DNA of 64,000 nt from an uncultured Candidatus Saccharibacteria bacterium (GCA_964474375.1 CAYYSG010000001.1:18559-82558), one strand, 5' to 3'. Shown: positions 2,841-31,743, numbered from the stretch's first letter. Notes: a model not told the origin generated them from the letters alone. Made by a program: numbers and translations.

Positions 2841-4196
2841 CTATTTGAATAACGACCTTATCCTCTCCATTTCAGACATTAATCCAGTGTTTGTTTCTAA
2901 TTCTTGTTTAATTTTTTCATAACTGTGTATAACTGTCGTATGATCTTTACCTCCCATTTTTTGACCAATCAAAGGAAAAGATAGATTAAAATCCTCACGC
3001 AAGACATACATTATGATTTGTCTTACATGCACTACTTCTTTACGACGAGTTTTTTCATAAATAGAAGCACTGTCTAAATGATAAAATGACGATATTACTT
3101 TAACAACTTCTTCAACAGATATTTGTTTTTGGGATTTAACACTGTTTTTAATGATATCTTTGATTTCTTGCAGGGTCAGGTTTCTCTTCTTTATATCGGC
3201 CTGCAACGCGATTGTTTTTACGTTGCCCTCTATCTCTCGGATATTACCTTCAACTGATGCTGCAATGTATTCTACACTCTCTGTAGGCAAACCTACTCCT
3301 AGCTTAGACAAATTAGACCGTATTATAGCTACACGTGACTCATAATCAGGTTCATGAACATCAACGATCATTCCTTGGGAAAATCGTGAGCGTAGTCTGT
3401 CTTCTAACCCTGGAATATAGTTCGGGTGCTTATCAGATGAAAATATTATTTGTTTATTAGCTTCGTATAGCATGTTAAAAAGATGAAAAAGCTCATCTTG
3501 AACCTTCTCCCCTTTTCCTATCATTTGGATATCATCCATAACAAGTACATCATAAACACGATATTTGTCTTTAAATGTACCCATAGCTTTATTTTGAATA
3601 GCACTGACGCATTCTATTACAAACTTCTCAGCGCTAGTGTAAAAAACCTTCTTTTCAGGAAAATGTTTTTTAATAGCATTACCTACTGCTTCGATCATAT
3701 GAGTTTTACCAAGACCCGTGTTCCCGTATATAAAATATGGGTTATATAGCATACCTGGGCTACGAACTACAGCTTGTGCTCCAGCGTTGGCTAGCTCGTT
3801 AAACGAACCGACTATCATATTGTCGAATGTATAACGAGGATTCAGTCCGTCCTCTTTGTTTACATACATGTCCTGTATAGGTAAAGAAGGATTAGTAACC
3901 TGTTTCGGGTTTATTATTCTAGGTAGCGCTTCTGCATCGTATTTTGCTACAGTAAATTCTACATTTTTAATAAATGAAGCTTGGTCAACTAATGACTTTA
4001 ATATAACTTTATGAAATTTATTATAAAGCCAATCCTTTGCGAATTCATTTGGTACCCCAATGAACACAACACCATCTTCAATTTTTACTATATGAGTTTG
4101 TTTGAACCAAGTTGTAAAATTAGGTCTTGATACTATCTTTTCAAGGTTACTTAGGCACTCTTCCCAGAGACTCTTTGGGTCAACATCAGTTTGCAT
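2841..4196 (-). CDS. dnaA: Chromosomal replication initiator DnaA
   Basis: Walker A GNTGLGKTHM, Walker B/sensor LVMDDIQMIGKGEKVQDELFHLFN, and a C-terminal DnaA-box binding helix-turn-helix (VVHVRQIIMYVLRE). 451 aa. Confidence 0.95.
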   Translation of the reverse strand: MQTDVDPKSLWEECLSNLEKIVSRPNFTTWFKQTHIVKIEDGVVFIGVPNEFAKDWLYNKFHKVILKSLVDQASFIKNVEFTVAKYDAEALPRIINPKQVTNPSLPIQDMYVNKEDGLNPRYTFDNMIVGSFNELANAGAQAVVRSPGMLYNPYFIYGNTGLGKTHMIEAVGNAIKKHFPEKKVFYTSAEKFVIECVSAIQNKAMGTFKDKYRVYDVLVMDDIQMIGKGEKVQDELFHLFNMLYEANKQIIFSSDKHPNYIPGLEDRLRSRFSQGMIVDVHEPDYESRVAIIRSNLSKLGVGLPTESVEYIAASVEGNIREIEGNVKTIALQADIKKRNLTLQEIKDIIKNSVKSQKQISVEEVVKVISSFYHLDSASIYEKTRRKEVVHVRQIIMYVLREDFNLSFPLIGQKMGGKDHTTVIHSYEKIKQELETNTGLMSEMERIRSLFK

Positions 4197-6325: not shown

Positions 6326-7414
6326 TTACTTTTTAGCGCACCCTGTCCATCCATATATGGAAAAATGTCTACCGGTAACCCAGCTGTATGTTCCGGCGCC
6401 TAGTCCTAGGTCTTTTGCTTTTTTGACCATTGCATCACCTGTTTGTCCTTCAAAGACAGTACACAGTTTAGATTTATTCGCTGATTGGTCTATATAAGTC
6501 AGGACATCGATATCGTTATACAAGTTACTATCAGTAAAAGCAAAGTCAACACATCTTCCAGTTTTGTGGCATGAGTTTTTGTGTTTTACGCTTTGAGGCA
6601 TTGCCTCGGTTATTCTATAGTTTCCTTTTATTTTAGAATTTTGGTCTAGTAGTTTTTTAAAAGCAGCCAGTCTTTCAGCTAGTTCTTTCGAAGCGTATTT
6701 GCCATTTTTTGTTTCCCATCCAGATATTGTTAAGTCGCTACAGTCCCCTGTAACTTTTTCATTAGGTTCTCCTTGGCAGGTATCCTTTACGCTTGTGGCT
6801 TTGTCGTAATTAAAGTCTTTTATGATATTTCCATCTTCACCATATGTAAAACTAACAACTGGCCAGGTTCTGGTATTTATTAAATTCCCCCCTATTCTTA
6901 TCTTCACTAAATCAGGATTAATAGTATAAAGTATCAAATAAGCACAAAACATGAGTATAAGTCCTGCTATTGCTGTAGTTATTTTACTTCTACTATCACT
7001 TTTCTTCCATACGGTATCTGACCCCATATACTGCACTCCATAAACCATGATCATGACTACAGTAATAGCACCTGCCATAGCTATAGCTAGCCTTATTATA
7101 AAGTTTACAAAGTCAGAGAAGCCGCCTGTCTCACCTTCTTCTTTTTCTTTGTCTGTTAGTTCTCTACAGCCACGGATACTACCATCAGCGTTGTATTCTG
7201 GTTTACCCGTATCACAAATCTTATCTATATTGCCTATTTTGTTTATTAGTTTGTATGAATCAGGTTTAAAATTTACATTATTTGTGTTTGTGGTGGCTTT
7301 GAGAGTTGTACTAGTATCAACATAGCTATTAGTTAGTACAGGAGTTTGAGCTACGGCTGCACTGCTTAGAATAAATCCCCAAAATAAAATAAAAATAAAT
7401 ACTTTATTCTTCAT
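6326..7414 (-). CDS. Fusion protein: signal peptide plus VirB2/TrbC-pilin-like two-helix membrane module, then a Cys-rich LAS/M15-type peptidase-like domain
   Basis: N-terminus carries a signal peptide and two hydrophobic helices (FVNFIIRLAIAMAGAITVVMIMVYGV; ITTAIAGLILMFCAYLILYTI). C-terminus has SCHKTGRCVDFA (SxHxxGxxxD, LAS metallopeptidase-like) and a later GRHFSIYGW His. Confidence 0.4.
   Translation of the reverse strand: MKNKVFIFILFWGFILSSAAVAQTPVLTNSYVDTSTTLKATTNTNNVNFKPDSYKLINKIGNIDKICDTGKPEYNADGSIRGCRELTDKEKEEGETGGFSDFVNFIIRLAIAMAGAITVVMIMVYGVQYMGSDTVWKKSDSRSKITTAIAGLILMFCAYLILYTINPDLVKIRIGGNLINTRTWPVVSFTYGEDGNIIKDFNYDKATSVKDTCQGEPNEKVTGDCSDLTISGWETKNGKYASKELAERLAAFKKLLDQNSKIKGNYRITEAMPQSVKHKNSCHKTGRCVDFAFTDSNLYNDIDVLTYIDQSANKSKLCTVFEGQTGDAMVKKAKDLGLGAGTYSWVTGRHFSIYGWTGCAKK
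6891..7123 (-). repeat. 233-bp direct repeat copy A (100 percent identical to 9403..9635)
   Basis: Read base by base: identical from cctattcttatcttcactaaatcagg to aagtcagagaagcc. Lies inside the pilin-like module coding region of 6326..7414. Confidence 0.85.
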
Positions 7415-8654
7415 AAGACCACAAGCTCATATTTTTTTTATTTATAAAGCTAATCAAATTACCGGAATTATTTATAGATGTTTTCCATACATCAATAGGA
7501 TTTTGGGCATCAGATGATATTTGGGACATTTCGCGAGCATTTAAATTCATAGTGGTATAACGAACGATTCCGTCATTTGTTTCTATTTCCCCGCTGTACC
7601 ATGCATCAGGATACAACACATTGTCGAAAGACTTTGGCACTGCACAAGTAAAAATAGTTTCATCAGAACTCCATGAACATTTTTCAACTAGACCCATTTT
7701 GCCTAACTGGCGCATTGTGCCATCTTTTAAATTATATGTAGACATAACCGGACCAGATTGCTCGGTCACTGCCCGCAGGATATAGTTTCCATCAGGTGAG
7801 ACTTTTGTGGTTAGGCCATTTAAATTCCCCCAGATTTTAGTTAGTTTTTTATTTTTTAGATCCAGGGTATAGGCAAACCCAGGTGCTAATTCTGTAGCTT
7901 TTGTTGTTAACAGTAGTTTTTCTTTGTTTATAAATTTAACGTGCCATTCACTAATAGGTGAAGAATAAACCAGCTCATCTTTAGCTGATTTTTCCATAAA
8001 TATACTAGAGCCATTTTGGTTTTTGCTAATGTATATAAATTCTCCGTCTTTAGCAAAGTCAAAAGAGATTATGTTGTCCGGCAATATTTTTACAGAATCC
8101 CTCCCTAGTGTTCCTAAGACTGATTTTTCTGTTATCATATCGGCATCTAAATATCTAAACAAAACCCTATTTCCATCTGGTGAAAAGTCAGCAAACAAAA
8201 CCCTAGGCAATGCCGTGTCGGATATTAAATAACTATTACTGTATTTAGGAATATAGTCATAAATATAACCATTTTCTCGGGATACATATCTAATAGCATC
8301 TATTTGGTCATATATTTTATTACCTTTTGCGTCGACGCCAGTTTCGCCGGCTATTTCGTCGTCTCTTCTTACTATAATAGAACCAGCTACGTTTTCAGCA
8401 ATGAGTTCTGGGTATCCAGTTGTATTTACTGCACTATCCCCCTCATCACCTCCACCAGGCAGTATGTCTCTTATAATGTCACCAATAGTACTGCCATCAT
8501 TATTACCAAAAGGTAAAAAATCTTTAGCTGTTATTTCAGTTATTTGGCCACTGTCTAGTTGTTTTTTTAGTGAGTTATTACGAATAACCATAAAACCAGC
8601 CATTCCTATTATTAGAATAACTAAAATTATTCGTATTAGTCTGCCTTTGTGCAT
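7404..8654 (-). CDS. Membrane-anchored beta-propeller protein (TolB/PD40-like repeats)
   Basis: N-terminal TM anchor (IRIILVILIIGMAGFMVI) and repeated SPDGNRVLF / SPDGNYIL PD40-like motifs. Confidence 0.5.
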   Translation of the reverse strand: MHKGRLIRIILVILIIGMAGFMVIRNNSLKKQLDSGQITEITAKDFLPFGNNDGSTIGDIIRDILPGGGDEGDSAVNTTGYPELIAENVAGSIIVRRDDEIAGETGVDAKGNKIYDQIDAIRYVSRENGYIYDYIPKYSNSYLISDTALPRVLFADFSPDGNRVLFRYLDADMITEKSVLGTLGRDSVKILPDNIISFDFAKDGEFIYISKNQNGSSIFMEKSAKDELVYSSPISEWHVKFINKEKLLLTTKATELAPGFAYTLDLKNKKLTKIWGNLNGLTTKVSPDGNYILRAVTEQSGPVMSTYNLKDGTMRQLGKMGLVEKCSWSSDETIFTCAVPKSFDNVLYPDAWYSGEIETNDGIVRYTTMNLNAREMSQISSDAQNPIDVWKTSINNSGNLISFINKKNMSLWSYEE

Positions 8655-8696
8655 AAAATTATTATAACATAGAGATGTCGTAATAATTAGTGTTAA

Positions 8697-9824
8697 TTAT
8701 TTGTCTTGCAAGACACAGGCATCGTATAGATTCTTACGGTTTCTTGATTCGGTTTTTGCAAAGTCACTAGCTGGTTTACAGCTACCTCCGCCATATGCTC
8801 GAAATGTATTTTCTATATCACCCTTACATTTTTCAAAATTATATTGCAGTAGCTCTGCTCCAGCTTTTATGGCTTTGGTTGCATCGTACATATCTTTTGG
8901 ACAGACCGTGGTTTTTGTTTTTGCTGTTAGTCTGCATCTAGGTTTGCCATCTTCTGGAAAAAATGTAAATTGCATAATCCCTACCCCATGAGAAAATCTC
9001 CAGTCTAGTCCTAAATCATCACGACTTGGATTACTGGCGGTGAATATACCGCCCGTTCCATGGTCATCATTTAAAAAACTAGAGTTAGTTCCTAATAGGT
9101 TATTGTTTGGGTTAAATGTAACGCCTTTGTATGTTTTACCTGATGCAATGAATTGCCTTCTGGCTGGTACGCTTTTAGGAATAGGTGCATTTTCATCGTG
9201 CCCTATTACGCTAGGGTTACCTCGGGATTCACGGAGAGCCACCACCTGCAACATGCAGTGATGTATACCATAAGATGGAGCAATGGATTTAATTTGGTTA
9301 TAATAAGCAGTCCTAGCGAATGTCGTTGTTACCTCTCTTTCTAGTCTGTATTGGCTGGCTGGGTTCCATTCGGACCATGTATTTTCTTCTATTTTGTTTC
9401 CTCCTATTCTTATCTTCACTAAATCAGGATTAATAGTATAAAGTATCAAATAAGCACAAAACATGAGTATAAGTCCTGCTATTGCTGTAGTTATTTTACT
9501 TCTACTATCACTTTTCTTCCATACGGTATCTGACCCCATATACTGCACTCCATAAACCATGATCATGACTACAGTAATAGCACCTGCCATAGCTATAGCT
9601 AGCCTTATTATAAAGTTTACAAAGTCAGAGAAGCCATTAGGGCTGACATCTTGCACTTCTTTTATATTACCTATTTCGTTTATTAGTTTGTATGACCCAG
9701 GCTTAAAATTTGCATTGTTTGTGTTTGTGGTGGCTTTGGGTAGGTTATCCGATTTTACTATTGTTGGGTAAACAAATCCTGTGGCAAAAATCAGAACCAG
9801 TATAAAAAGTGTTTTCTTTAACAT
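8697..9824 (-). CDS. Fusion protein: VirB2/TrbC-pilin-like two-helix module plus lytic-transglycosylase-like (VirB1-like) domain
   Basis: N-terminal ~130 aa are nearly identical to those of 6326..7414. C-terminal domain has LRESRGNP ... GVGIMQFT ... RAYGGG, resembling the SLT motifs ES / GLMQ / AYNxG but with a long insertion. Confidence 0.45.
   Translation of the reverse strand: MLKKTLFILVLIFATGFVYPTIVKSDNLPKATTNTNNANFKPGSYKLINEIGNIKEVQDVSPNGFSDFVNFIIRLAIAMAGAITVVMIMVYGVQYMGSDTVWKKSDSRSKITTAIAGLILMFCAYLILYTINPDLVKIRIGGNKIEENTWSEWNPASQYRLEREVTTTFARTAYYNQIKSIAPSYGIHHCMLQVVALRESRGNPSVIGHDENAPIPKSVPARRQFIASGKTYKGVTFNPNNNLLGTNSSFLNDDHGTGGIFTASNPSRDDLGLDWRFSHGVGIMQFTFFPEDGKPRCRLTAKTKTTVCPKDMYDATKAIKAGAELLQYNFEKCKGDIENTFRAYGGGSCKPASDFAKTESRNRKNLYDACVLQDK
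9403..9635 (-). repeat. 233-bp direct repeat copy B
   Basis: Identical to 6891..7123. Lies inside 8697..9824. The flanks are only ~85 percent similar. Confidence 0.85.
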
Positions 9825-9827
9825 AAG

Positions 9828-10775
9828 TTAAAAATTAAGCTCCAATGCAGATTTGAATTCTTGGTATAGTGATCGAGGATTATCGTAATTTAGATTCAGG
9901 CGAACAACTCCACTGTCATCGGGCCGAATAAACGAAATCAGTTCTGGAATTTTTTGGTTATTTACATCTTCCCCACTAAGGTTCCAGACAATATTTGGAT
10001 TCAGTGTTTTATTTATACCCAAAGGAACACCAAAAACTGAAATAGTATTGTCATACCCAGCAACTTCATTTTTTATAGTGGTCCCTAGATTAAGTCCAAC
10101 CAAAGGACTGTATTCGTAGAATAATATTTTGTTTCTAGTAAAAGGTATACTAATAGAAGAAGTTTTGGTTTCAGAATTGGGTTTTATTACAGATACTGTT
10201 ATGTTTTCGGATCTTTCTATTTCTGTGTTTTTAAAATCAACAAAATTATTAGCACTGCTAGATTTCGTTTGGAGTGATTTGCCATTTCTTGCCCAAGAAT
10301 ATGAAACTTGTCCCCCACTAGGGTTCAGGACAGCTACGCGCAAATCATTTTCTCTTATTGGTATACGCTTACCCATGTAAAAAGGAATACTTTTACTATT
10401 CATTGCTTCCCAGATTAAGTCATAAGACATAGATGAAAAAGTTATATTTTTAGTAACCTTAGACCCACCAACTAGTGTTATTTCAGCATCAATGTTATTT
10501 TGTGCTCCTGGAGTATTACTTGATTCTATTGTAAATTCTTTTTCACCATAGCCAGATTTAGTCACACTGCCGTATGACCATTTAATATAAGCTAAATCTA
10601 AGTTTGTTTCGTAGCTTGTTAGTGTTGCTGTTACCTCCTCGCCTTCTCTTGGATCTACTGGATTAATACTGATGGATATATTAGGTTCAGATTCAAAAGT
10701 ACCCTGCGCCAGAGCACTGCCAGTTATAATAAATATAAATAATGCTATACCTAACAGGTATTTTTTCATATACAT
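9828..10775 (-). CDS. Secreted hypothetical protein within the T4SS-like cluster
   Basis: Signal peptide MYMKKYLLGIALFIFIITGSALAQ. No recognisable motifs. Confidence 0.5.
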   Translation of the reverse strand: MYMKKYLLGIALFIFIITGSALAQGTFESEPNISISINPVDPREGEEVTATLTSYETNLDLAYIKWSYGSVTKSGYGEKEFTIESSNTPGAQNNIDAEITLVGGSKVTKNITFSSMSYDLIWEAMNSKSIPFYMGKRIPIRENDLRVAVLNPSGGQVSYSWARNGKSLQTKSSSANNFVDFKNTEIERSENITVSVIKPNSETKTSSISIPFTRNKILFYEYSPLVGLNLGTTIKNEVAGYDNTISVFGVPLGINKTLNPNIVWNLSGEDVNNQKIPELISFIRPDDSGVVRLNLNYDNPRSLYQEFKSALELNF

Positions 10776-10786
10776 ATTATAGCATA

Positions 10787-12649
10787 CTAGTTTTGCTGTG
10801 CTTTATTTTTTTCAGCTTGAATAGCCAGAACTTGAGCTGGGTCAGATGTGATTATTTGTTCCTCTGTATAAGACGAAACTATTTTGATGGCTACGTGTTT
10901 TAGTCCTGCGAAAAATATCCCTTCCCCTACGTTGGCTTCTAGTAGTGTGTATTTTTCCGCATCGGTTAGATTAAATGCATCTTTTAGGACATCAATAGTC
11001 GTTGGGGACTGTTTTAGAAGCAGTTGCATTGAAGAGTTAGTTAAAATAGGTCTACCATATGGTGATTTTAGGAAGTCCTCCACGTCTTGTGTAATTGTAG
11101 CTAATCCAAGGTAATATTTACGTCCACGTTTTGCAATACTGTATAGGAAACTAGCTGTGTCTTCGTTTTTCATCATCCACCAAGCTTCATCCACTACCAT
11201 TAGTCTCTTTTTTAGATTCTTACGGATTTCATTCCATATGAAATGAGTAATTATATACATTGCTACAGGTTTTAATTCATCTTCCATATCACGTATTGAA
11301 AACACAACGAACTTCCGGTTTATGTCGACGTTACTTGGTTTGTTTAAGAATCCTGACCATGAGCCGGTTGTGAACTTTTCTAGCTTTGTAAGTACTGAAG
11401 AAGTTCCGTCCATACCAGCTAACACAACTGCAAAGTCGGACAATAGTGGTGGTTCAATAGTACTAAAGTCTGAATCAACGGTAATGTCCTTTAGGGCATA
11501 AGTCTCGGTGATTGCACGGTCGATAATAGCGTCTTCTTCGGGAGTTAGCCCACCCAGCATTACGCGAAATAGCCCCACTAGATTGATTGTATTTTGGCGG
11601 AGTACGTCTGCATTTGTTTCGTCTTTACTTGGGATCGGTAAATCAAAAGGATTTATATGGTGGTCAGATGATAGTGATACATTAAAATATCGCCCCCCTA
11701 CTGCGTCGGACAGGTATTCGTATTCTTTTTCCGGGTCGATAACTATAACATCAGTATCGAACATGAGTGAACGCAGAATTTCTAGTTTGGTTGCGAAAGA
11801 TTTACCAGAACCTGATTTTGCAAATGTTACAGAGTTATAGTTTTCCAATGAAAATCGGTCAAAAATAATAAGTGAATTATTATGCTGATTGATTCCATAT
11901 AAAATTCCTTTGTTGCCTGTTAGGTCAAACGAAACAAAAGGAAAAGTACTGGACAATGGTTCTGTGTTCATTTTTTGCATTACACGCAAATTGTCTTTTG
12001 CCATCGGGATGCTGGACAGGAATGCCGTGTCTTGCTGAAAAGTCGCTGGTTTGATGAATATCATTTGTGAATCCAGCTGACCTTTTATTTCGTTCTCGGC
12101 CTTGAATAGATCGGATTCATTTTCGGCATATATGTTGATATATAGTCCTACTTCGAACATTTTTTCTTGTGCTTGCTGCAAAGAATCGCGCAGTTGCTCT
12201 AAATCTCTATATGCTGATTCTAACATTGGGTCACGAACCATACCCTTGCTCTCTCTTTCGGATATTTGACTTTGGACTTCAGCTACCTTTTTCTGGAATT
12301 GGGACATTATTTTACCAGTATCTACTGGGGTTATGTTTATGGAAATATCGAAAACCCTGTCCAAGTTTATTATAGGTGTTAGCCAGTTGTCAGTTAGTAT
12401 ACTAGGATATCCTACAATATAGAATGAACGTACTATCATGTCCCCTAGATTAAGAGCAGTAGGCATTATCTGCAGTGCTGATGGGGCTATAATGTCTTGT
12501 AGTTCGAGCTGAGCTGAACTAAAGATTTCTTCTGGTCTAACAGACAAAGAACCAAGAACACTAGATGATTCTTTTTTGTTTCCGCCACCAAATATTTTTG
12601 AAAATATAGACATATTATTGGTTACTTTGCTTAGGGATATGACCAGCAC
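10787..12649 (-). CDS. virB4: VirB4/TrbE/TraC-family conjugation-type ATPase, C-terminal ATPase portion
   Basis: Walker A FAKSGSGKSFATK. ..HHINPFDL, Walker B LMVVDEAWWMM, and RGRKYYLGLATITQ. Overlaps the upstream partner ORF by 35 nt. Confidence 0.7.
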   Translation of the reverse strand: MLVISLSKVTNNMSIFSKIFGGGNKKESSSVLGSLSVRPEEIFSSAQLELQDIIAPSALQIMPTALNLGDMIVRSFYIVGYPSILTDNWLTPIINLDRVFDISINITPVDTGKIMSQFQKKVAEVQSQISERESKGMVRDPMLESAYRDLEQLRDSLQQAQEKMFEVGLYINIYAENESDLFKAENEIKGQLDSQMIFIKPATFQQDTAFLSSIPMAKDNLRVMQKMNTEPLSSTFPFVSFDLTGNKGILYGINQHNNSLIIFDRFSLENYNSVTFAKSGSGKSFATKLEILRSLMFDTDVIVIDPEKEYEYLSDAVGGRYFNVSLSSDHHINPFDLPIPSKDETNADVLRQNTINLVGLFRVMLGGLTPEEDAIIDRAITETYALKDITVDSDFSTIEPPLLSDFAVVLAGMDGTSSVLTKLEKFTTGSWSGFLNKPSNVDINRKFVVFSIRDMEDELKPVAMYIITHFIWNEIRKNLKKRLMVVDEAWWMMKNEDTASFLYSIAKRGRKYYLGLATITQDVEDFLKSPYGRPILTNSSMQLLLKQSPTTIDVLKDAFNLTDAEKYTLLEANVGEGIFFAGLKHVAIKIVSSYTEEQIITSDPAQVLAIQAEKNKAQQN

Positions 12650-13262
12650 TGTCCCCTGGGTTAAATGTTTTGTAATAAAGCTCGATCAAGCCTTCGGTGT
12701 TTAAGGGTACTGACCGTACTCCACAGCGGCCCAGAGTTTGCATTACGATACCTAGTCTTTGTTCTAGCTGGTTTCTTTTTTCATTCCAGTCTACTTCTTC
12801 TTCGGATTCTATTTTTTTTAAGCCCCCAACAGACCCAAAAAATTTTGAGAAAAATCCCCCAGTACGTATTAATGACTGACTATATGGTACAACTATATAA
12901 AAATGTTTTGACATTATGTTTACCCTGCTAGTTAGTTCACGAATAAATTCGATATATTCTCTGGTTTGGAATTTGAGCAAAGGCTCGTCTATTTTGTCGA
13001 GTCTTTCTTCTAGTGTTAGTAGGTATGGTCTAATATCGAATTTTCTGGACTGGACGACTATTTGAGTATCAAAATCGAGCGAATTTAATAGTGATTGGAA
13101 TTGTAATATTATAGACTTTTGTTCGTCTTGTGAGCGCAAAGTAAAGTTAATAGCGGTACACAGTAGTACAGCTCTTAGTCCACCATCATTAAGTTCCACC
13201 ACCCCGTCACGGATGTGTTTTATCGGTACAAATGACTGACTGCTTGGTGCTTTGATTGACAT
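12615..13262 (-). CDS. VirB4-family N-terminal domain, encoded separately in a different frame
   Basis: PIKHIRDGVVELNDGGLRAVLLCTAINFTLRSQDEQKSII resembles the VirB4 N-terminal region. Together the two ORFs total 835 aa, close to a typical VirB4 (~800 aa). Confidence 0.5.
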   Translation of the reverse strand: MSIKAPSSQSFVPIKHIRDGVVELNDGGLRAVLLCTAINFTLRSQDEQKSIILQFQSLLNSLDFDTQIVVQSRKFDIRPYLLTLEERLDKIDEPLLKFQTREYIEFIRELTSRVNIMSKHFYIVVPYSQSLIRTGGFFSKFFGSVGGLKKIESEEEVDWNEKRNQLEQRLGIVMQTLGRCGVRSVPLNTEGLIELYYKTFNPGDSAGHIPKQSNQ

Positions 13263-13263
13263 A

Positions 13264-13692
13264 TTATTTTACTGATTGACCGCTAGATTGGTCTCGGTCC
13301 ATTACGTCTAGACTCCATGCCAATGCTTCTATCTTACCACGGTCTAGGTTTTTCGGTGTAGTTAGGACAGGCTTTTTTGTGGCTATTCCTTTGTTATCCA
13401 TGTCTTTTTTGTGTTCAGGTCTTTGCCAGACATACATACGGTTTTTTGTGTAGTGTGTTAAAAATGCTTGGAACATTAGAATAGCTGGACGAGAATTCGG
13501 CTTCCAGAATGAAAGACTAATAGCTAAGAATAAAAATAAAGCTATAAGTATAAAACCAAAAGTAAAACCCAGATATGTATATGTTACATAAGCCAGGCCA
13601 ACTCCCCCACCTAGATAAATAAATTGCTTAAAAGTCAAAGGCCCAATGACTTTGTCTTCTATGTCTAAAAATCTTGGCATTTGGAATTGCAT
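13264..13692 (-). CDS. VirB3/PrgI-like small membrane protein
   Basis: 142 aa. IEDKVIGPLTFKQFIYLGGGVGLAYVTY then a TM helix, matching the VirB3/PrgI-type pattern (..GLT.rQ...), and located immediately upstream of virB4. Confidence 0.45.
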   Translation of the reverse strand: MQFQMPRFLDIEDKVIGPLTFKQFIYLGGGVGLAYVTYTYLGFTFGFILIALFLFLAISLSFWKPNSRPAILMFQAFLTHYTKNRMYVWQRPEHKKDMDNKGIATKKPVLTTPKNLDRGKIEALAWSLDVMDRDQSSGQSVK

Positions 13693-13733: not shown

Positions 13734-14405
13734 TTATTCTGGGATTTCGCGGTATAGATCATTTTTCCTGTCACCTGTGGTTACTTTGGGTAAACTAGTT
13801 TCTATTTTGGTGCGGTCTAGTACTTGGTTTTCGTTCTTACTTTTTAGTATATCTTCCCAGGAATCTGATTTTAGGGCAGGTATGGAATTGCTATTCATCT
13901 CTGCTACTTTTTCATGGCTTAACATGCCACTAGGTCTAATGTCGCTGGTTACTCTTGAAACTGGTGCTGGGGCTACCCCTTCAGGTCTTGGAACATCTTG
14001 CATTTCGATGTAGTCGGATAGCTCTTTCTCAATCATGTCGTCGTTTTTCCAGTTGTTCTCTAGTACTGCGACTCTTTCTTTGGTTAGAATATTGGCAAAG
14101 ATATAGTCATGTATACCACCACGGACAGAACTGTTTACATTTGGCAATGCCTGGGTTATTTCATCTTTAACTTCACTTGGTCTAATGAAACCCAGTAATG
14201 TCATTGTAGTTATGTATTCTATCTCACTAACATATTCAGGTGCTAAACTGTAATTTTTAACCATATTTAGAAAGTCATTTGCATAACTTTGACCTAGAAC
14301 ATAGTTCCGTAATTCCGGCTGAATATTTTTAAGCCTATCCATTATTTGAGAAACTTCTTCTTGGGATTCATTAGGTATTAAGTTGATTTTATTATTTTCA
14401 TCCAT
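13734..14405 (-). CDS. Hypothetical protein, T4SS-like cluster
   Basis: 223-aa ORF with no recognisable motifs, gene-dense context, same strand as the cluster. Confidence 0.4.
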   Translation of the reverse strand: MDENNKINLIPNESQEEVSQIMDRLKNIQPELRNYVLGQSYANDFLNMVKNYSLAPEYVSEIEYITTMTLLGFIRPSEVKDEITQALPNVNSSVRGGIHDYIFANILTKERVAVLENNWKNDDMIEKELSDYIEMQDVPRPEGVAPAPVSRVTSDIRPSGMLSHEKVAEMNSNSIPALKSDSWEDILKSKNENQVLDRTKIETSLPKVTTGDRKNDLYREIPE

Positions 14406-14408
14406 AAA

Positions 14409-17400
14409 TTATGCTTTAGGTGGTTGGTATTTGTCAGTTGTGTCGACCTTTGTGTCTTTGTCTTGCCAGCTTCTACCATAGTTTTCATAGAATTTTCTGT
14501 CATACTCTGCCATTCTTACTAGCCCTGTAGCTATTGCTGTTGGTGCTGCTACCCAGCCGAATGGAGCACCTAGTACTGATCCTTTTGCTACGTCGGTATG
14601 TAAGAATGAATCATTGAGTACTGCACCTAATTTGCTTCTTGTTCCTGACGGGCTACTTTTTAGTTGATATGTCATGTTTTCTATATCACGAGCTGCTTCG
14701 GCTACATCTTTCAGAGCCTTGTCTTTTGCTTCACCTTCCATGGAATCTATATCGATTGAATTATAGACTGCCTCGTAAATTCTATTTTTAGCATGTTTAT
14801 TGAGAATCTCGGTGTCTTTTTTATACTTTTTAATGATCTCTTTCTTTTTGTCTTCGTCGGCTCCTGCCCATTCTTTGTCAGTTTTTGCTTTGTTTTCAAC
14901 TTCATTCATTATTTCCATAATGTCAGACCTTTTTGCCATTTTCTCGTCGGTCTCTGCTTCTTCTAGGTCTTTTCCAATTTTTTCTTTATATACGTCAAGA
15001 CCAGTTTTACGTTGGAATATTTTACCAGATTTTTCTCTTTGGAATTGCTTATATCTATCTGCTCTGTCAGTTTTAACTTTTTCCATTGCTTCTTCTGCAC
15101 CTTTTATTCCGATTACATGCATAGCTTTACCTGTTTTTTCATCTACGTATGTATAGCCATCACCTTTTAAGGCATTTAGCTTGTCTTTCTCTATTTTAAT
15201 TTCTTTTCTAATTTCTTTTTCTGCGTTTCCTAGTTTTGTGGCTTCTTTGTTTGCGTCTGTTTGGCCGTCTTCGTGTTTCCTTATTTCTTCTTTTAAGGCG
15301 TTCTTATCTTCTTCCAGTTTAGCTTTTTGACCTTCAAGTAAGACTTTTTTAGCAGTATCTGTCTCAGCGTCTATTTCTTTTTGTTTTTCTTTAATAAGAT
15401 TTTCTTGTTCGTTGACTTTTCTTGTTTTTGTTGATATTTCAGCTGCGTGGTCTCTGGCTACTTGTTGGTAAGAACGCATTTCAGAGAATTTTTCATCAGC
15501 ACGTTCTTTTAGGTCATTAACTATGTCTTCTTGGTTATTTGCTGCACGTTCTGTTTTTTTCTTAACATCTTCCATTTTGTTGTACATTTCTTGGTCGAAC
15601 CCTAGAGAGTCTTCAAACTTTTTAATTCTCTCTGTTTTTCTTTGCATCTGTGCCATGTATCCCCCAGCAGTTGTAGCTGTTTGGAATTGTTTACCAAAGA
15701 AAGGTATATAGTTTGTACCAGCTTGCATATTAACCCCTGTGAATCCTGATACTGCGCTGGCAGCTTTGTTTTGACGTAAATCAAAGCTACCTTTACGTGT
15801 CATATCGAGTGCTCCTACTTTTAGTCTTGCCCATGTGTTGCCTTCGGCTGCTTTTGTCATTAGTTTTTCTCCTGCGGTACTTTGCATATAACGACTAGCT
15901 CTTTTACCTAGTGCATTTCTACCAGCCCAGGCTGCGCCACCTGTAGCTATTGCTGCACCAAATCCAGCTACGCCAGACGCTACTGCTACTAATTTATCCC
16001 CTGCTAGTTTAGCAATGCTCGAAGTCAGGCCTTCTGTCATAGATTTTATTAAATATAAGAATCCAATTATCAGCATAAAAGGTATGATCAAACTCATCCA
16101 CCATTCTATACCCACAACTCCGTCGCCAAATACCGCTTTAAAAGGATTGTTCTTTACAAATAGTACTAGTATCATCATTAAAACTAGGAATATTGGAGCC
16201 TTGAATGCATCTTTTAATAGTCCTTGCATCCATTCTTCAAAACCAACCATTTTTAGACCACTTCTTTGTCCTGATGATAACGACAATGAAAACACTGCTA
16301 AGGGTGAAAGTATAATTGCAAATATAAGCCCTATAATACGGTATATGAACTGCAAAGCTATTTTTAGGAATATCAGCATTGCTATGACGTTAAATATCAC
16401 ACCCATTAGGAGTATCATGAAGACCGTTCCTTTGTTTTCGTCTACTTTGAATGTAGCAGCGTTGTCATCAAGTCCATCTAAGATGATTTTTTGGGGGTCG
16501 TAACCTTCGGCGGCAGTAGATGAAAGACTAATAGCTTTACCATCTGCCCCGTCGGTACGACTAAACACGTTGTAGTATAGTTGGCGCGCAGTAATGTTCG
16601 ATATATCTATAACTATTGTTGTTAGCGGGAATGAAAAGTTAATAACCGTAGCCACTATCAGAGTGTTAACTATTAGTTGCTTAGTACCCTGCCCTATGTT
16701 TAAAACTAGTTTGAATGCTAAATATAGCAACATAAATATAAAGAACAAGTTACATACATCACGAATGAATCTCCAGCCGTCTTTTATATACTGTGCATTG
16801 TATGAATCTGGCTGGATACTATAAGCCAAAACAAAGTCCATGATGCTACCCGCTACACCCAGTAAGAATGCTGTTGGTACAAAAACCATATAGTAAAACC
16901 CAACAACAAGACATCCAGTAAACCAAGTGCCAATGTCTTTCGCATCACATTTAGGCATCCAAGCCGGACCACTACCAGCACTATTGCCTGAGCTTATAAG
17001 GACTGCCCCACCTCTGGATGTTTGTGTTATTTGATCTGGTATTGATACCGAAACAACAGGAGTATATCCATTGTCGTCAAACCAAGGGTCGTGTTCGTTA
17101 GCAAAAAGTCTAAAATAATAAGTTTTGTTTTTTTCAACTTGTAGTGGTTCTAGTCCAAAAACCATACCAGTTTTTGCATCGCTTATGATAGGTGAATCTA
17201 CTTTTTCACCGAATATATACGGGTTTAAGTTTATCTCTTTTACGTCATTACCTCCTACTTTTGGATCAGTGTTACTAGTTGAATATAAAAGATAAAATCC
17301 ATATCCACCCTCATTTGCTGTTCGGGTATCTATTTCTGGGTTATTAAAGCCTTTTGTAAAATTATCCCAGTCACCTCCTGGAATGTCTCCAGGAGATGCT

Positions 17401-18662
17401 TTGCGATTATTATCTACATCATTCCATGCAATAAAATCTGTACTATCTGGCTTGTCTATAAGCATAGCAATATCAATGTCTAAAACAGGCTGACTACCCG
17501 ACATTGCTGGTTCGAGTTTTTTAATTGAATAGTCTTCCATTACGTAATTTGCATTTGCAAATTTGTATTGAATATTTTGTTTAGTGCTTGTGTTTAACAA
17601 GGTCCATGTTACTTGAGTTCCAGAATTTGCATTTGGGTCAAAAGCCATTTGAGCTTTTGCGCTAGACCATTCTGTTGATAGCTGGTAGGATCCATCTGTT
17701 TTAGGTTCTGGGTCTGTTGTTTGTATCAATTCAGATCTAGACAATGTATACAGAGTTCGGTCGCTATTATCTTGAAAGTAATTTACTTTAAAACTCCCCT
17801 TTTTTTGTTTAGGTATGTCTGCACTCAAATGAAGGATGTTTTTATTTGTCTTACCTTCTACTTTTAATGTTCCAACCATATTCTGGGTTACATCAAAACT
17901 AGAATAGTCTTTTTCTCTAAATTGGCCCCATTCAACATCAAAACTATTACCAGTTCCTTTTTGTGCTTTTATAAAAACAACATGATCTTTTATGTTTTTA
18001 TAAATAGTTGTACCGATAACTGTATCAGCTAATTCTTCAACCGCATTTTTATCAGAAGTCTTTTCTGTCCGGATAGTCTTTACTCCTTGCCTGTCTTCTG
18101 TTGTATATGTAAATTTATAATGCCCCCACTCATCAAAACCACCATTATCCTCAATACATTTTTTAAAAAAAGTAGAAGGTATTGAAAATGTAAAATCTTG
18201 TTTTAAATACCCCCTTGCTTCGGTGTTCGCTAGATTTAGGCTGGCAATAGATGTTTTGTCGGGGCTTGTAAGACTAGGGTTAGATACGAGCGTTACATTA
18301 CTAGCAGAACAACCTGTTTCTATATCTCCTGGAACAAATCCATCTCTTATTTCGTATTCAATTTTATCAATAGAATTTATTCTATGGTTAGGGTCAGTAA
18401 AAGCTGAAACTTTTATATTAGTTCCATCAGTAATACCTGTGACAATAAGAAAAGCGTCTGCATTTTTAGCATCAACATATTCTCTTTTTTCTACTTTTGG
18501 TGTTTGTGCTGATACTGTATTAGCCCTGACACTGATTTTGTTGTCAGAAAAGTTTATTATGAAAGGTGAAAAAAGCTGGAAGATAACCAGAAAAATAGCT
18601 ATAAATCCAAAAGCTTTTTGCTTCATACTGTATGTATAAATTGTAACATATTTTTTAAACAT
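14409..18662 (-). CDS. Giant polytopic membrane protein, VirB6/TrbL-like core with ~560-aa N-terminal extracytoplasmic region and Gly-rich/coiled-coil Lys-Glu-rich C-terminal tail
   Basis: 1417 aa. N-terminal signal/TM, then a multi-TM block (~570-870, e.g. LFFIFMLLYLAFKLVLNIG, FMILLMGVIFNVIAMLIFL, WWMSLIIPFMLIIGFLYLI). Followed by a Gly-rich segment (GVAGFGAAIATGGAAWAG) and a long K/E-rich coiled-coil. Confidence 0.4.
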   Translation of the reverse strand: MFKKYVTIYTYSMKQKAFGFIAIFLVIFQLFSPFIINFSDNKISVRANTVSAQTPKVEKREYVDAKNADAFLIVTGITDGTNIKVSAFTDPNHRINSIDKIEYEIRDGFVPGDIETGCSASNVTLVSNPSLTSPDKTSIASLNLANTEARGYLKQDFTFSIPSTFFKKCIEDNGGFDEWGHYKFTYTTEDRQGVKTIRTEKTSDKNAVEELADTVIGTTIYKNIKDHVVFIKAQKGTGNSFDVEWGQFREKDYSSFDVTQNMVGTLKVEGKTNKNILHLSADIPKQKKGSFKVNYFQDNSDRTLYTLSRSELIQTTDPEPKTDGSYQLSTEWSSAKAQMAFDPNANSGTQVTWTLLNTSTKQNIQYKFANANYVMEDYSIKKLEPAMSGSQPVLDIDIAMLIDKPDSTDFIAWNDVDNNRKASPGDIPGGDWDNFTKGFNNPEIDTRTANEGGYGFYLLYSTSNTDPKVGGNDVKEINLNPYIFGEKVDSPIISDAKTGMVFGLEPLQVEKNKTYYFRLFANEHDPWFDDNGYTPVVSVSIPDQITQTSRGGAVLISSGNSAGSGPAWMPKCDAKDIGTWFTGCLVVGFYYMVFVPTAFLLGVAGSIMDFVLAYSIQPDSYNAQYIKDGWRFIRDVCNLFFIFMLLYLAFKLVLNIGQGTKQLIVNTLIVATVINFSFPLTTIVIDISNITARQLYYNVFSRTDGADGKAISLSSTAAEGYDPQKIILDGLDDNAATFKVDENKGTVFMILLMGVIFNVIAMLIFLKIALQFIYRIIGLIFAIILSPLAVFSLSLSSGQRSGLKMVGFEEWMQGLLKDAFKAPIFLVLMMILVLFVKNNPFKAVFGDGVVGIEWWMSLIIPFMLIIGFLYLIKSMTEGLTSSIAKLAGDKLVAVASGVAGFGAAIATGGAAWAGRNALGKRASRYMQSTAGEKLMTKAAEGNTWARLKVGALDMTRKGSFDLRQNKAASAVSGFTGVNMQAGTNYIPFFGKQFQTATTAGGYMAQMQRKTERIKKFEDSLGFDQEMYNKMEDVKKKTERAANNQEDIVNDLKERADEKFSEMRSYQQVARDHAAEISTKTRKVNEQENLIKEKQKEIDAETDTAKKVLLEGQKAKLEEDKNALKEEIRKHEDGQTDANKEATKLGNAEKEIRKEIKIEKDKLNALKGDGYTYVDEKTGKAMHVIGIKGAEEAMEKVKTDRADRYKQFQREKSGKIFQRKTGLDVYKEKIGKDLEEAETDEKMAKRSDIMEIMNEVENKAKTDKEWAGADEDKKKEIIKKYKKDTEILNKHAKNRIYEAVYNSIDIDSMEGEAKDKALKDVAEAARDIENMTYQLKSSPSGTRSKLGAVLNDSFLHTDVAKGSVLGAPFGWVAAPTAIATGLVRMAEYDRKFYENYGRSWQDKDTKVDTTDKYQPPKA

Positions 18663-18690: not shown

Positions 18691-19545
18691 TTATTTACAA
18701 ATAGTTTCTTTGGCTTTGTGTATTATACATTCTATCGTGCCGTTTTGTATCGTGGTTATGGTTTTTATGTTGTACTTGTTTAGCACATTTAGTACTTCGA
18801 TGTGTGGGTGACCATAGCGGTTATTCTCCCCTGCGGAAATCAGTGCGTATTTGGGCGTGGTTAGCATGATTAGTCTTTCGCCGGTCGATGTGTTGGATCC
18901 ATGGTGTCCAACTTTTAATATGTCTATGTTGTTTAAGTATTTGCCATACTTTTTCAAGACCTCATCTTCTACTTCTTTTGGGGCGTCACCTGTTAGCAGT
19001 ATCTTTTTGCCTTCGTATTCTATCAGTCCTACCATTGAACCCGAATTCCTTTCCCAGTCAGCTACATTGCCTTCGGGCCAAAGAACTGTATAAGTCACGC
19101 CATGATTTTTGTCCAGAACCACTACATCCCCGCTTTTAGGCTTATAAATGTTGATTTTTTGCTCTTGGGCTAGTTTTTCTATTTCAGTATAGGCGCTGAT
19201 GGTGTGATTGGTGCCGGGGCTTAGTATTTGCCCTATTTTGTATTTTTCCATTACAAAAGGAAATCCTCCTATATGGTCCAAATCTGGGTTGGAAACCTCG
19301 ATGATGTCTATTGTCTCACCGGTATTTATATATTTGCCTAGCTCACTTAGCACGCTCCTGTCGCGGCCTGAATCTATCAGCATTTTCCTGCCGCCGGGGG
19401 TTTCTATTAGTGTTGCGTCGCCCTGGCCTATGTTTAGCATATATAGGCTCAAGCTATTTTCTTCAGGTTTTTGCCTAGTTAGTAGAAAAATAAGTATAAA
19501 AAAGACTAAAATTGTAATTATCCAGTAAATATTCCGTCTTTTCAT
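18691..19545 (-). CDS. ComEC C-terminal metallo-beta-lactamase-fold domain protein, encoded as a separate gene with its own TM anchor
   Basis: LNIGQGDATLIE, DHIGG, and KVGHHGSNTSTG are motifs of the ComEC/Rec2 MBL domain. The ORF is open to 19605, and the start is more likely Met at 19545 (MKRRNIYWIITILVFF). Confidence 0.7.
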   Translation of the reverse strand: MKRRNIYWIITILVFFILIFLLTRQKPEENSLSLYMLNIGQGDATLIETPGGRKMLIDSGRDRSVLSELGKYINTGETIDIIEVSNPDLDHIGGFPFVMEKYKIGQILSPGTNHTISAYTEIEKLAQEQKINIYKPKSGDVVVLDKNHGVTYTVLWPEGNVADWERNSGSMVGLIEYEGKKILLTGDAPKEVEDEVLKKYGKYLNNIDILKVGHHGSNTSTGERLIMLTTPKYALISAGENNRYGHPHIEVLNVLNKYNIKTITTIQNGTIECIIHKAKETICK

Positions 19546-19578
19546 GTATAAATTATAACATTTTGCTATAATACTCCT

Positions 19579-20184
19579 ATGATAGAAAAATACACTGCAA
19601 AACAATATGATTTGCCAGAACTAACTGGTATTTCCAAAAAAAGTATAGAAGAACATATGAAACTATACGAAGGCTATGTTAAACACGCCAACCTAATAAA
19701 AGAAAAGCTAGAATCAATCCCCGCGGACGATGCCTATACTCGCACCGAACTCATGCGACGGTTTTCTTTCGAGTTCTGTGGTATGCGTAATCACGAGCTT
19801 TATTTTTGGTCTCTTGTTGGTGGGGCTAGTACTATTCCAAATGGTTCAAAGTTAGAATCAGACATCATTCGTGATTTTGGTAGCATAGATGATTTTTTTA
19901 TAAAATTAAAAGAAATAGCTTTGACTCGGTCCGTTGGTTGGGCAATGTTGTCCTACGATGTAACATTCGACCACTTGACTTTGTCTTGGGTGGATGAACA
20001 GCATATAGGGCAACTCATGAACGTGTTCCCTGTTTATGCTATCGATATGTGGGAACATGCTTATGTTTACGACTATCAGCCTAGTGGTAAAAAGAATTAT
20101 CTTGAAGACTATATCAAAAATACAAATTTCGAATCTTTATCTAACCGCTACGAAGTTTTTTGCAGTAGCTTAAAACCTTTGTAA
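19579..20184 (+). CDS. sodA: Fe/Mn superoxide dismutase family protein
   Basis: NHELYFWS and AIDMWEHAYVYDY match the SOD metal-ligand motifs NHxxFW and DxWEHAYY. The N-terminal HH..HH motif is partly degenerate. Confidence 0.7.
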   Translation: MIEKYTAKQYDLPELTGISKKSIEEHMKLYEGYVKHANLIKEKLESIPADDAYTRTELMRRFSFEFCGMRNHELYFWSLVGGASTIPNGSKLESDIIRDFGSIDDFFIKLKEIALTRSVGWAMLSYDVTFDHLTLSWVDEQHIGQLMNVFPVYAIDMWEHAYVYDYQPSGKKNYLEDYIKNTNFESLSNRYEVFCSSLKPL

Positions 20185-21455
20185 AATAAAAATACATAAA
20201 TAGTCAGTACAATAACCAAAGGAAAATTTTCCACATAGTAGGCAGACCAAGTTGTCTCGCCTATTTTGTTTATTATATATATCATCAGGTTTGAAATATT
20301 TTCCGTAACAAAAGCCGGAATGAATCTGAGGAATTCAGGTGTGATACCTAGCACAAATCCAAACAGCATTAACACTGGTATCATTGGAACTATTATAATG
20401 TTAGCTATAATTCCAAGTGACGAAATTATGCCTATAGAATAAGCAATATATGGCAAAGTCATAATGCTAGCTGAAATAGTGCTACTCAATGTTTCGGACA
20501 AAAATTTGCCAAATCTTTTTTTAACAAAATATCCAGCGACTGTGCCCTGGTATGCTATTAGTCCAAAAGTTGCCAGTACTGAAAGATGAAAACCCACATC
20601 ATAGCGTAAAGACAAAGGTGAAATCAGTATCAGCAAGGAGGTTGCTAAAAATAAAGCATACAGGTTATTGTATTCTAGCCCTCTGGCTCGTGCATAAATC
20701 AAGACGAGCGACATTATGCTGGCTCTGACTGCGCTACTGGCTCCGCCAGCTAATACCAAAAAAGCCAATATACCAAGCGACCCAAACAAACTACGAACCA
20801 GTATACTAAACGAAGACAGTATCTTCATAATAGTTTCACTAACTATGGTCATGTTGTATCCAGAAAGCGCAATTATATGGCTAGTGCTCGATCGTGACAA
20901 ATTCAGCCTAAATTCATTTGTCATGTCAGACTTCTCCCCTAATAATATCCCGCGTGTTAACGAAGCGCTATTATAACTAAGTGACGCATTTATTTTATTT
21001 GCAAAACCAGTGCGTATTTTAAAAAGAAAACTTTTTATTTTGTTGGCTTGGTTTATACCCAGTACTTCTATTGTGGGTTCGCGGACTATGCCATATATTT
21101 TAGATAGTTTTAAATAATTATCATAATCAAATGTTTTACCTGAGTCGGTAATAAAGTCTTTTGGTTTTTCTATTGTGCTAGTTATTTTTAGCTCATCGCC
21201 ATAATGGTATTCAGTATAAGGTTCAGTTACTATTAGTAACCTGCTGTTATCATTCACATTTATTTCGTTTATGGATTTTATTTTTATTCTGTATCTATTT
21301 GAACTAATTCTTTTTTCTGGGTAATCATCCACTACTCCTATTATTGTAAATTCTTCGTCACCAAAATTAATTTCAATTTCTTCTTTTACAAAACAAAAAT
21401 ACATTCCGTATATTATAGGTATTATGACTATAATAATTCGGAATGTATTTTTCAT
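20148..21455 (-). CDS. comEC: ComEC/Rec2 competence channel (membrane domain only)
   Basis: Polytopic protein whose region LAFLVLAGGASSAVRASIMSLVLIYARARG is typical of the ComEC competence domain, with a DUF4131-like N-terminal part. Confidence 0.7.
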   Translation of the reverse strand: MKNTFRIIIVIIPIIYGMYFCFVKEEIEINFGDEEFTIIGVVDDYPEKRISSNRYRIKIKSINEINVNDNSRLLIVTEPYTEYHYGDELKITSTIEKPKDFITDSGKTFDYDNYLKLSKIYGIVREPTIEVLGINQANKIKSFLFKIRTGFANKINASLSYNSASLTRGILLGEKSDMTNEFRLNLSRSSTSHIIALSGYNMTIVSETIMKILSSFSILVRSLFGSLGILAFLVLAGGASSAVRASIMSLVLIYARARGLEYNNLYALFLATSLLILISPLSLRYDVGFHLSVLATFGLIAYQGTVAGYFVKKRFGKFLSETLSSTISASIMTLPYIAYSIGIISSLGIIANIIIVPMIPVLMLFGFVLGITPEFLRFIPAFVTENISNLMIYIINKIGETTWSAYYVENFPLVIVLTIYVFLFYKGFKLLQKTS

Positions 21456-31740: not shown

Positions 31741-31743
31741 GGT

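Follow-up and report, generated by a model that had tools for sequence, protein, structure and literature searches.

A probable extended VirB6-type protein with a modelled beta-sandwich ectodomain in a chromosomal type IV secretion cluster of an uncultured Candidatus Saccharibacteria bacterium

Here, we report a 1,417-codon open reading frame (ORF; 14409-18662, minus strand) on a 64,000-nucleotide stretch of DNA from an uncultured Candidatus Saccharibacteria bacterium (GCA_964474375.1, CAYYSG010000001.1:18559-82558; hereafter the window, with positions counted from its first letter). The gene probably encodes the VirB6-type subunit, in an extended form, of a monoderm-type (MPF_FATA-related) type IV secretion system (T4SS) encoded on the chromosome near the origin in a bacterium of the Patescibacteria/candidate phyla radiation (CPR), ultra-small organisms that depend on this system for life on host cells. 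Reported T4SSs of Patescibacteria are MPF_FATA-like, lie near dnaA, comprise VirB4, TrsD, PrgI, and VirB2-like pilins, and usually lack a relaxase (PMC12102498). The VirB6 assignment is based on fold, genomic context, and a transitive match rather than on direct sequence similarity, and we accept it with good confidence.

An earlier description made from the sequence only (the sequence-only reading) had singled out this ORF as by far the largest in the window and as a three-part envelope protein, with an extracytoplasmic N-region, a VirB6/TrbL-like core, and a charged tail. The frame is intact over its full length, and the next largest ORFs encode 712, 645, 620, and 600 amino acids (aa); every part of the described layout is present. 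At the window's GC content of 37%, stops make up ~6.8% of random codons and a chance frame of this length has a probability of ~1e-43 (by arithmetic), so that a chance open frame of 1,417 codons is excluded. Public assemblies contained five full-length homologues (1,302 to 1,359 aa; 37 to 49% identity). Since every homologue starts at the residue corresponding to Met13 (MK[RQ]KAFG), the true start is probably Met13, at position 18626, giving a product of 1,405 aa; the 36 nucleotides between Met1 and Met13 are AT rich and promoter-like.

The evidence for a VirB6-type protein begins with the hydrophobic helical core (residues 561-930; 15873-16982, minus strand). Hydropathy and modelling agree on a polytopic region of seven hydrophobic helices plus one borderline Gly-rich segment, where five or more such helices are taken to mark a VirB6. 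Residues 556-1012 were modelled with AlphaFold2 (AF2) from an alignment of 34 diverse sequences, and the model consists of long helices (predicted local distance difference test [pLDDT], 77; predicted template modelling score [pTM], 0.66), the longer ones in the core spanning residues 577-616, 624-653, 660-699, 744-795, 821-838, 852-878, and 882-927. When the core model was compared with the PDB using Foldseek, TrwI/VirB6 chains of the R388 stalk took ranks 1, 2, 3, and 5 (probability, 0.94 to 1.00; best E value, 7.8e-3), and the unrelated matches that followed had probabilities of no more than 0.33. Two independent methods of structure comparison ranked TrwI as the best natural match, and DotA was also among the matches.

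Gene order points the same way. PrgI and VirB4 are encoded 0.7 to 2 kb downstream of the giant gene on the same strand, and the order giant gene, PrgI/VirB3, TrsD-like gene, VirB4 recurs in four related loci (L001, L002, L013, and L014), which are those of the homologues P0003 and P0006 (the latter being L002) and of the distant members P0156 and P0071 (core identity, 27 to 31%). P0156 matches the core profile at an E value of 1.5e-48, is recorded in a precomputed table with an unmarked Pfam TrbL_3 match, and lies in a gene cluster that holds PrgI, TraC-like, VirB4, and T4SS_pilin genes. Synteny at the VirB6 position and the TrbL_3 match of a family member uphold the view of the gene product as a giant envelope protein resembling VirB6, in which an external N-region is joined to a multi-helix hydrophobic core and a charged tail.

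Several results weigh against this assignment. The sequence-only reading had named a hidden Markov model (HMM) search against TrbL/VirB6 as a check, and the search was negative: neither the full protein nor residues 560-1012 matched TrbL/VirB6 in Pfam or NCBIfam at E values up to 10, while a positive control, PrgH of pCF10, matched Pfam TrbL at 1e-6. Scans of the full protein and the core with Pfam, NCBIfam, and PHROGs gave nothing relevant, and a core profile search of PDB sequences gave no match. The current copy of Pfam detected no TrbL in 10 family representatives or in P0156 and P0157, so the recorded TrbL_3 match of P0156 was not reproduced. In profile-profile comparisons with hhalign, the core scored a probability of 0.6% against PrgH alone; the core family aligned with a 21-sequence PrgH family over 104 columns (E value, 0.056; probability, ~1%), and a 114-sequence core alignment did so over 211 collinear columns (E value, 0.04; probability, ~1%), both insignificant. 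With the direct HMM search negative and hhalign insignificant, the VirB6 link is supported by fold, synteny, and the transitive match and not by direct sequence.

These same negatives raise the possibility that the protein is an unrelated polytopic membrane protein (a channel, permease, or anchor) that was recruited to a T4SS locus and serves as a VirB6 analogue or an accessory. We regard such an origin as unlikely, given that TrwI leads both structural comparisons, with DotA also appearing, and that P0156 carries TrbL_3. The best local hhalign alignment, although insignificant, is also collinear across nearly all of PrgH. Furthermore, the cluster encodes no other multi-helix membrane protein fit for the part of VirB6, its other membrane proteins having at most one to four hydrophobic segments and being PrgI-like or pilin-like.

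The T4SS genes themselves are readily recognized. A small PrgI/VirB3-like membrane protein (13264-13692, minus strand) matches Pfam PrgI at 1e-7 and has one strong hydrophobic segment. It is followed by a TrsD/TraC-like protein of 215 aa (12615-13262, minus strand), which corresponds to the N-terminal domain of VirB4 as a separate ORF (NCBIfam VirB4 N-terminal, 2.6e-10; TrsD, 0.052), an association of TrsD with VirB4 having been described (PMC12102498). The VirB4 ATPase proper (10787-12649, minus strand; start probably at ATG 12613, giving ~608 aa) is of the CD1110/MPF_FATA type, matching NCBIfam conju_CD1110 (NF045971) at 1.2e-113 with 381 bits against a cutoff of 325 and Pfam P-loop_TraG at 1e-27. 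The two VirB4 ORFs overlap by a few bases. A frameshift was considered for the split and dismissed: a separate "TraC-like" gene of 212 to 217 aa precedes VirB4 in all four related loci, so the split is a genuine feature. Immediately downstream of the giant gene, before prgI, lies a gene for a soluble protein of 223 aa (13734-14405, minus strand) without a match in Pfam, NCBIfam, or PHROGs; a gene of 216 to 318 aa occupies its position in L001, L002, L013, and L014, and it is an uncharacterized, conserved component of the T4SS.

The remainder of the cluster (6326-10775, minus strand) encodes a secreted protein of 315 aa, a pilin-like protein with an SLT transglycosylase domain (8697-9824; E value, 7e-8), a protein of 416 aa, and a second pilin-like protein (6326-7414). 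In L001 and L013, the corresponding place is taken by T4SS_pilin genes. With dnaA (2841-4196) and dnaN, accompanied by rnpA and yidC, 2 to 14 kb from the cluster, the locus combines the components that mark an MPF_FATA-like T4SS of Patescibacteria: a CD1110/FATA-type VirB4, a separate TrsD-like ORF, PrgI/VirB3, pilin-like genes, and a nearby dnaA. A Pfam search of the ~40 larger ORFs of the window, several of which have no match at all, revealed neither a relaxase nor a coupling protein.

Upstream of the giant gene lie genes for ComEC, a separate metallo-beta-lactamase (MBL) protein, superoxide dismutase (SOD), and RecJ. ComEC appears to be split into an MBL ORF (18691-19605, minus strand) and a Competence-domain ORF (20148-21455, minus strand), with an Fe/Mn SOD gene (19579-20184, plus strand) between them; the same arrangement directly precedes the giant gene in L001 and L002. 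This conserved neighborhood, together with a weak similarity of the VirB4 to the archaeal DNA-import ATPase CedB, could be taken to mean that the machine takes up nucleic acid in cooperation with the neighboring ComEC genes rather than being an export T4SS. We consider that highly improbable. In Southlakia, deletion of comEC costs competence but not viability, whereas the T4SS is essential (Wang et al. 2023, as reviewed in PMC12857230), so the two functions are separable; in addition, the family members at L013 and L014 are linked to VirB4 without ComEC nearby. In any case, the question of uptake bears on which way the machine works and what it carries and not on the identity of the subunit.

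To define the family, a profile of residues 1-1012 was built from six sequences and run with HMMER in an exhaustive search of 1.84 billion representatives. At least 9,001 protein clusters matched at an E value of 1e-3 or less, 1,461 of them below 1e-30. A word-indexed homologue search found only five relatives with the protein and eight with the core profile, and the family became visible only through the exhaustive search. Relatives occur in metagenome-assembled genomes labelled Candidatus Saccharibacteria and Candidatus Nomurabacteria. Only ~12 representatives matched the N-terminal 500 profile positions; the others matched the core and the region after it. Among the best 150 matches, the core-only members measure 650 to 1,200 aa. 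They have N-regions of their own, with a median length of 217 aa and in most cases preceded by a hydrophobic segment at the N-terminus; their charged tails have medians of 266 aa in length and 33% in Lys, Arg, Glu, and Asp (KRED) content. The three-part plan is therefore a trait of the family, and the size of the N-domain a peculiarity of the giant protein.

The N-region opens with a probable Sec-type signal peptide (residues 13-52; 18507-18626, minus strand), recognized from the starts of the homologues, hydropathy, and a conserved site: a K-rich n-region, a hydrophobic segment (residues 18-36), and a cleavage-type site N-x-A-x-A ending at A52. N48 and A52 are invariant among the homologues. 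In P0006, an AxA site directly follows the hydrophobic segment, which points to a probably cleavable Sec signal. Between the signal site and the core, inspection of the sequence shows ~500 mostly polar residues, which form the putative extracytoplasmic N-domain (residues 53-560; 16983-18506, minus strand). The structure prediction that the sequence-only reading had proposed for this region, for which it recognized no motif, yielded an AF2 model (residues 37-560; 14 sequences; pLDDT, 81) that is nearly all beta and comprises three compact FN3/Ig-like beta-sandwich modules (residues ~66-201, 226-356, and 374-560). The paired cysteines reported earlier are also there: C118 and C169 are invariant in the subfamily, and C572 and C584, at the start of the core, are invariant in 34 diverse cores. 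Both pairs would fit an extracytoplasmic placement. Faint FN3-type Pfam matches in the N-regions of two other family members suggest that beta-sandwich ectodomains may be common in the family. A single-protein search of the PDB returned lysozyme fragments (E values of 0.037 or more; residues 527-585), which were set aside as chance matches because the model has no lysozyme fold.

The three modules resemble domains of adhesins and receptors (Lap, invasin, and cytokine receptors). Mean pairwise identities within the six-member subfamily are 46% for module 1, 34% for module 2, and 52% for module 3, compared with 63% for the core and 25% for the tail. A domain of this kind with a variable middle module is what one might expect of a surface adhesin or envelope scaffold, that is, a membrane-anchored ectodomain for host attachment apart from secretion, whose linkage to the T4SS reflects co-regulation; in addition, no PrgB-type adhesins were detected in a Patescibacteria data set (PMC12102498). 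The distribution of conservation makes this quite improbable. It is the core that is most conserved, and the core occurs in at least 9,001 clusters but the large ectodomain in only ~12. For a mere anchor, a conserved hydrophobic region of ~370 residues that folds like VirB6 would be unnecessary. Synteny with VirB3/VirB4 is also tight across distant members. None of the three alternatives is favored, and the extended VirB6-type subunit is retained as the best explanation.

Toward the end of the core lies a Gly-rich segment (residues 886-915; 15918-16007, minus strand). The string GVAGFGAAIATGGAAWAG, which the sequence-only reading had quoted as a hinge before the tail, was found exactly, at residues 897-914. 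G900, G908, and G919 are nearly invariant in the 34 diverse cores. The segment is modelled with low pLDDT (38 to 46) and has a family mean hydropathy of 1.25; it may serve as a hinge, span the membrane as a helix, or form a re-entrant element. It leads into a conserved basic juxtamembrane module (residues 931-1012; 15627-15872, minus strand) distinguished by invariant columns and charge, with the family-wide motifs SFDxRQ (residues 959-964) and AGGY (residues 999-1002). Across 34 family members, residues 914-960 contain on average 9.2 K+R versus 3.4 D+E (net, +5.8), from which, by the positive-inside rule, we infer that the region after the Gly-rich segment is cytoplasmic.

The charged, fast-evolving tail (residues 1013-1417; 14412-15626, minus strand) stands out by composition, periodicity, and low identity. 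It is ~405 aa long counted from residue 1013, or ~490 aa from the end of the hydrophobic core, and 42% of it is charged (KRED), compared with a family median of 33%. Residues 1013-1340 include 72 K/R and 77 D/E among 328 residues, and K and E make up 17% and 14%, respectively, of residues 1040-1340. Pairs of E and K spaced i+4 are enriched (25, versus 16.9 ± 3.1 expected). A hydrophobic periodicity of 3.5 residues exceeded that of shuffled sequences in residues 1013-1096 (z, 5.2 and 3.8) and 1118-1180 (z, 3.2); against the same shuffles, it was absent elsewhere in the tail and over the tail as a whole (z, ~0). The claim of a Lys/Glu-rich coiled-coil tail is accordingly borne out only in part: the extreme charge stands, heptad periodicity is confined to these two stretches, and a single continuous coiled coil was dismissed. 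The tail is probably a largely helical, rapidly evolving region with two coiled-coil stretches, as judged from its composition and spacing. The only Pfam line obtained for the protein, rotavirus VP4_helical (E value, 0.24), fell in the charged tail and was treated as noise.

Alignment of the C-termini identified an optional hydrophobic, Gly/Ala-rich segment (residues 1363-1386; 14505-14576, minus strand), followed by the conserved terminal motif DKYQPP. The segment is found in P0001, P0003, P0004, P0008, P0009, and P0010 and not in P0002, P0005, or P0006; Y1412 is invariant in the subfamily. Many family members (P0002, P0004, P0007, P0012, P0022, P0025, P0044, P0045, and others) continue beyond a [DN]xYKPP motif with a His/Gly-rich end (e.g., GGGHDDHGHGGGHDDHGGGHH), a sign that this terminus may bind metal. 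In the window protein, the motif is retained as DKYQPP (14412-14440), and the chain ends two residues later, without the His-rich end.

Considered together, sequence anatomy, fold resemblance, synteny, and family distribution are compatible with the following picture of localization, assembly, and function. The signal peptide would drive export, leaving the ~500-aa triple-sandwich N-domain outside the membrane and tethered to the core. By analogy with R388 and Dot/Icm, for which a pentameric VirB6 stalk has been proposed (PMC12857230), the helical core (residues ~575-930) would adopt the VirB6/TrwI fold and form an oligomer, probably a pentamer, amid the VirB3/VirB4 complex. This oligomer could make up the part of the translocation path nearest the membrane and also serve as a platform for the cluster's VirB2-like pilins. 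In a monoderm lacking VirB5, VirB7, VirB9, and VirB10, a ring of ectodomains might span the thin wall to the surface and possibly contact the host cell. Such an ectodomain would be compatible with the hinge and with the surface-exposed conduit or adhesin that the sequence-only reading had put forward as possibilities. On the cytoplasmic side, the Gly-rich segment would pass into the basic module and then into the long charged helical tail, which is plausibly a spacer or a docking arm for VirB4 or substrates. A bolder version, which we find doubtful, is that in these epibiotic, wall-poor monoderms the ectodomain ring is the surface tip of the T4SS, replacing the VirB5 tip, adhesins, and outer-membrane core and touching the host; that the fast-evolving module 2 sets host range; that the cytoplasmic tail is a ruler or a docking arm for VirB4 or substrates; and that the 9,001-cluster family is the "missing" VirB6 of most Patescibacteria, with an ectodomain specific to each lineage.

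Comparison with known systems places the protein as an unusual member of a familiar class. Like TrwI of R388, VirB6 of Agrobacterium, and TrbL (PF04610), it is encoded beside virB3/virB4 and has five or more long hydrophobic helices. Unlike them, it has no detectable sequence-profile similarity to the group, is four to five times longer (1,417 versus ~300 to 340 aa), gains a beta-sandwich ectodomain of ~500 aa that follows the signal peptide at its N-terminus as well as a hydrophilic region of ~490 aa at its C-terminus, and belongs to a monoderm system without VirB5/7/9/10. The order of a VirB6-like gene, PrgI/VirB3, and a CD1110-type VirB4 is shared with the prgH-prgI-prgJ genes of pCF10, in which PrgH is the MPF_FATA VirB6, and the window VirB4 and PrgJ fall in one NCBIfam equivalog family. 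However, PrgH has 266 aa, is recognized by Pfam TrbL, and lacks both ectodomain and tail, and the window differs from pCF10 in the additional 223-aa gene before prgI and in encoding the VirB4 N-domain as an ORF of its own.

Extended VirB6 proteins are a recognized class, defined by a VirB6-like hydrophobic core with one or more large hydrophilic domains (PMC12857230), and the ~500-aa N-domain and ~490-aa hydrophilic C-region of the giant protein conform to that definition. In the described examples (Tn916 Orf15, MPF_FA proteins of 700 to 900 aa, and Legionella DotA; PMC12857230), the hydrophilic domains are reported as central or C-proximal, whereas the largest folded addition here is N-terminal and, as modelled, extracytoplasmic (three beta-sandwiches), an atypical position, and the protein is longer, at 1,417 aa. 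The VirB6 proteins of Patescibacteria (TM7x and Southlakia ML1; PMC12102498) likewise belong to chromosomal clusters near dnaA with VirB4, TrsD, PrgI, and VirB2-like pilins. A relaxase is usually missing from those clusters, and none was seen among the ~40 larger window ORFs searched with Pfam; in contrast to those surveyed, the giant protein escapes Pfam TrbL and carries a triple-sandwich N-domain found in only ~12 clusters.

Some further features of the surroundings are recorded here. The two pilin-like proteins of the cluster (6326-7414 and 8697-9824, both minus strand) share an N-terminal module consisting of a signal peptide, a "KATTNTNNxNFKPxSYKLIN" stretch, and a two-helix hydrophobic hairpin of ~79 aa. 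The hairpins are identical in protein sequence and 98% identical in DNA over 246 nucleotides, and the C-terminal domains differ, one having SLT; the DNA repeats lie at 6878-7123/9390-9635 and 7226-7301/9663-9738. This looks like a VirB2-like pilin module that was recently duplicated or gene converted and fused to different domains. In the P0006 locus (L002, 14622-18449), genes for DUF2207, an AAA_14/DUF4143 ATPase, and Bro-N are inserted between the gene that follows the giant gene and prgI, with AbiEii upstream, so the T4SS cluster tolerates mobile or defense-like genes. A type IV pilus cluster (29938-34705, minus strand) lies ~11 kb from the T4SS and encodes PilB (32948-34705), PilC (31744-32964), and a pseudopilin-like protein of 600 aa (29938-31740) that has CarboxypepD_reg domains and an N-methylation motif; both the T4SS and the type IV pilus are reported to be essential in Southlakia (PMC12857230). 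A 474-aa protein (36816-38240, minus strand) carries Por_Secre_tail, a C-terminal sorting domain of type IX secretion (E value, 2.9e-10), which is unexpected for a monoderm CPR bacterium.

VirB6 homologues have been known from Saccharibacteria since 2020 (PMC7427843), the T4SSs of Patescibacteria have been the subject of a survey (PMC12102498), and the extended VirB6 class is established (PMC12857230). What is new is the combination, in 1,417 aa, of a modelled triple beta-sandwich N-ectodomain, a VirB6-like core, and a long charged tail; the escape of this protein from the standard TrbL model; and the extent of the family that occupies the VirB6 position. Most likely, the giant protein elaborates on a known part and does not represent a new kind of system. 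For the gene itself, the result is mainly a well-supported annotation that will hold little surprise for a specialist and is useful for annotation and for host-contact experiments.

The wider interest lies in the family. Few machines have been shown to be indispensable to a cultivated Patescibacteria species in its dependence on a host, and the T4SS is among them (PMC12857230). virB6 is essential in Southlakia (PMC12102498), and a survey of Patescibacteria by HMM recovered only 480 VirB6 homologues, in a minority of genomes (Quinonero-Coronel et al. 2025, PMC12102498); for some classes, it described them as "scarce or absent." A large and easily recognized family, of 9,001 clusters or more, at the VirB6 position and with a VirB6-like fold would largely fill this gap of undetected Patescibacteria VirB6. 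Lineage-specific, putatively surface-exposed beta-sandwich ectodomains on the central channel subunit would then be candidate determinants of host contact, open to genetics in tractable Saccharibacteria.

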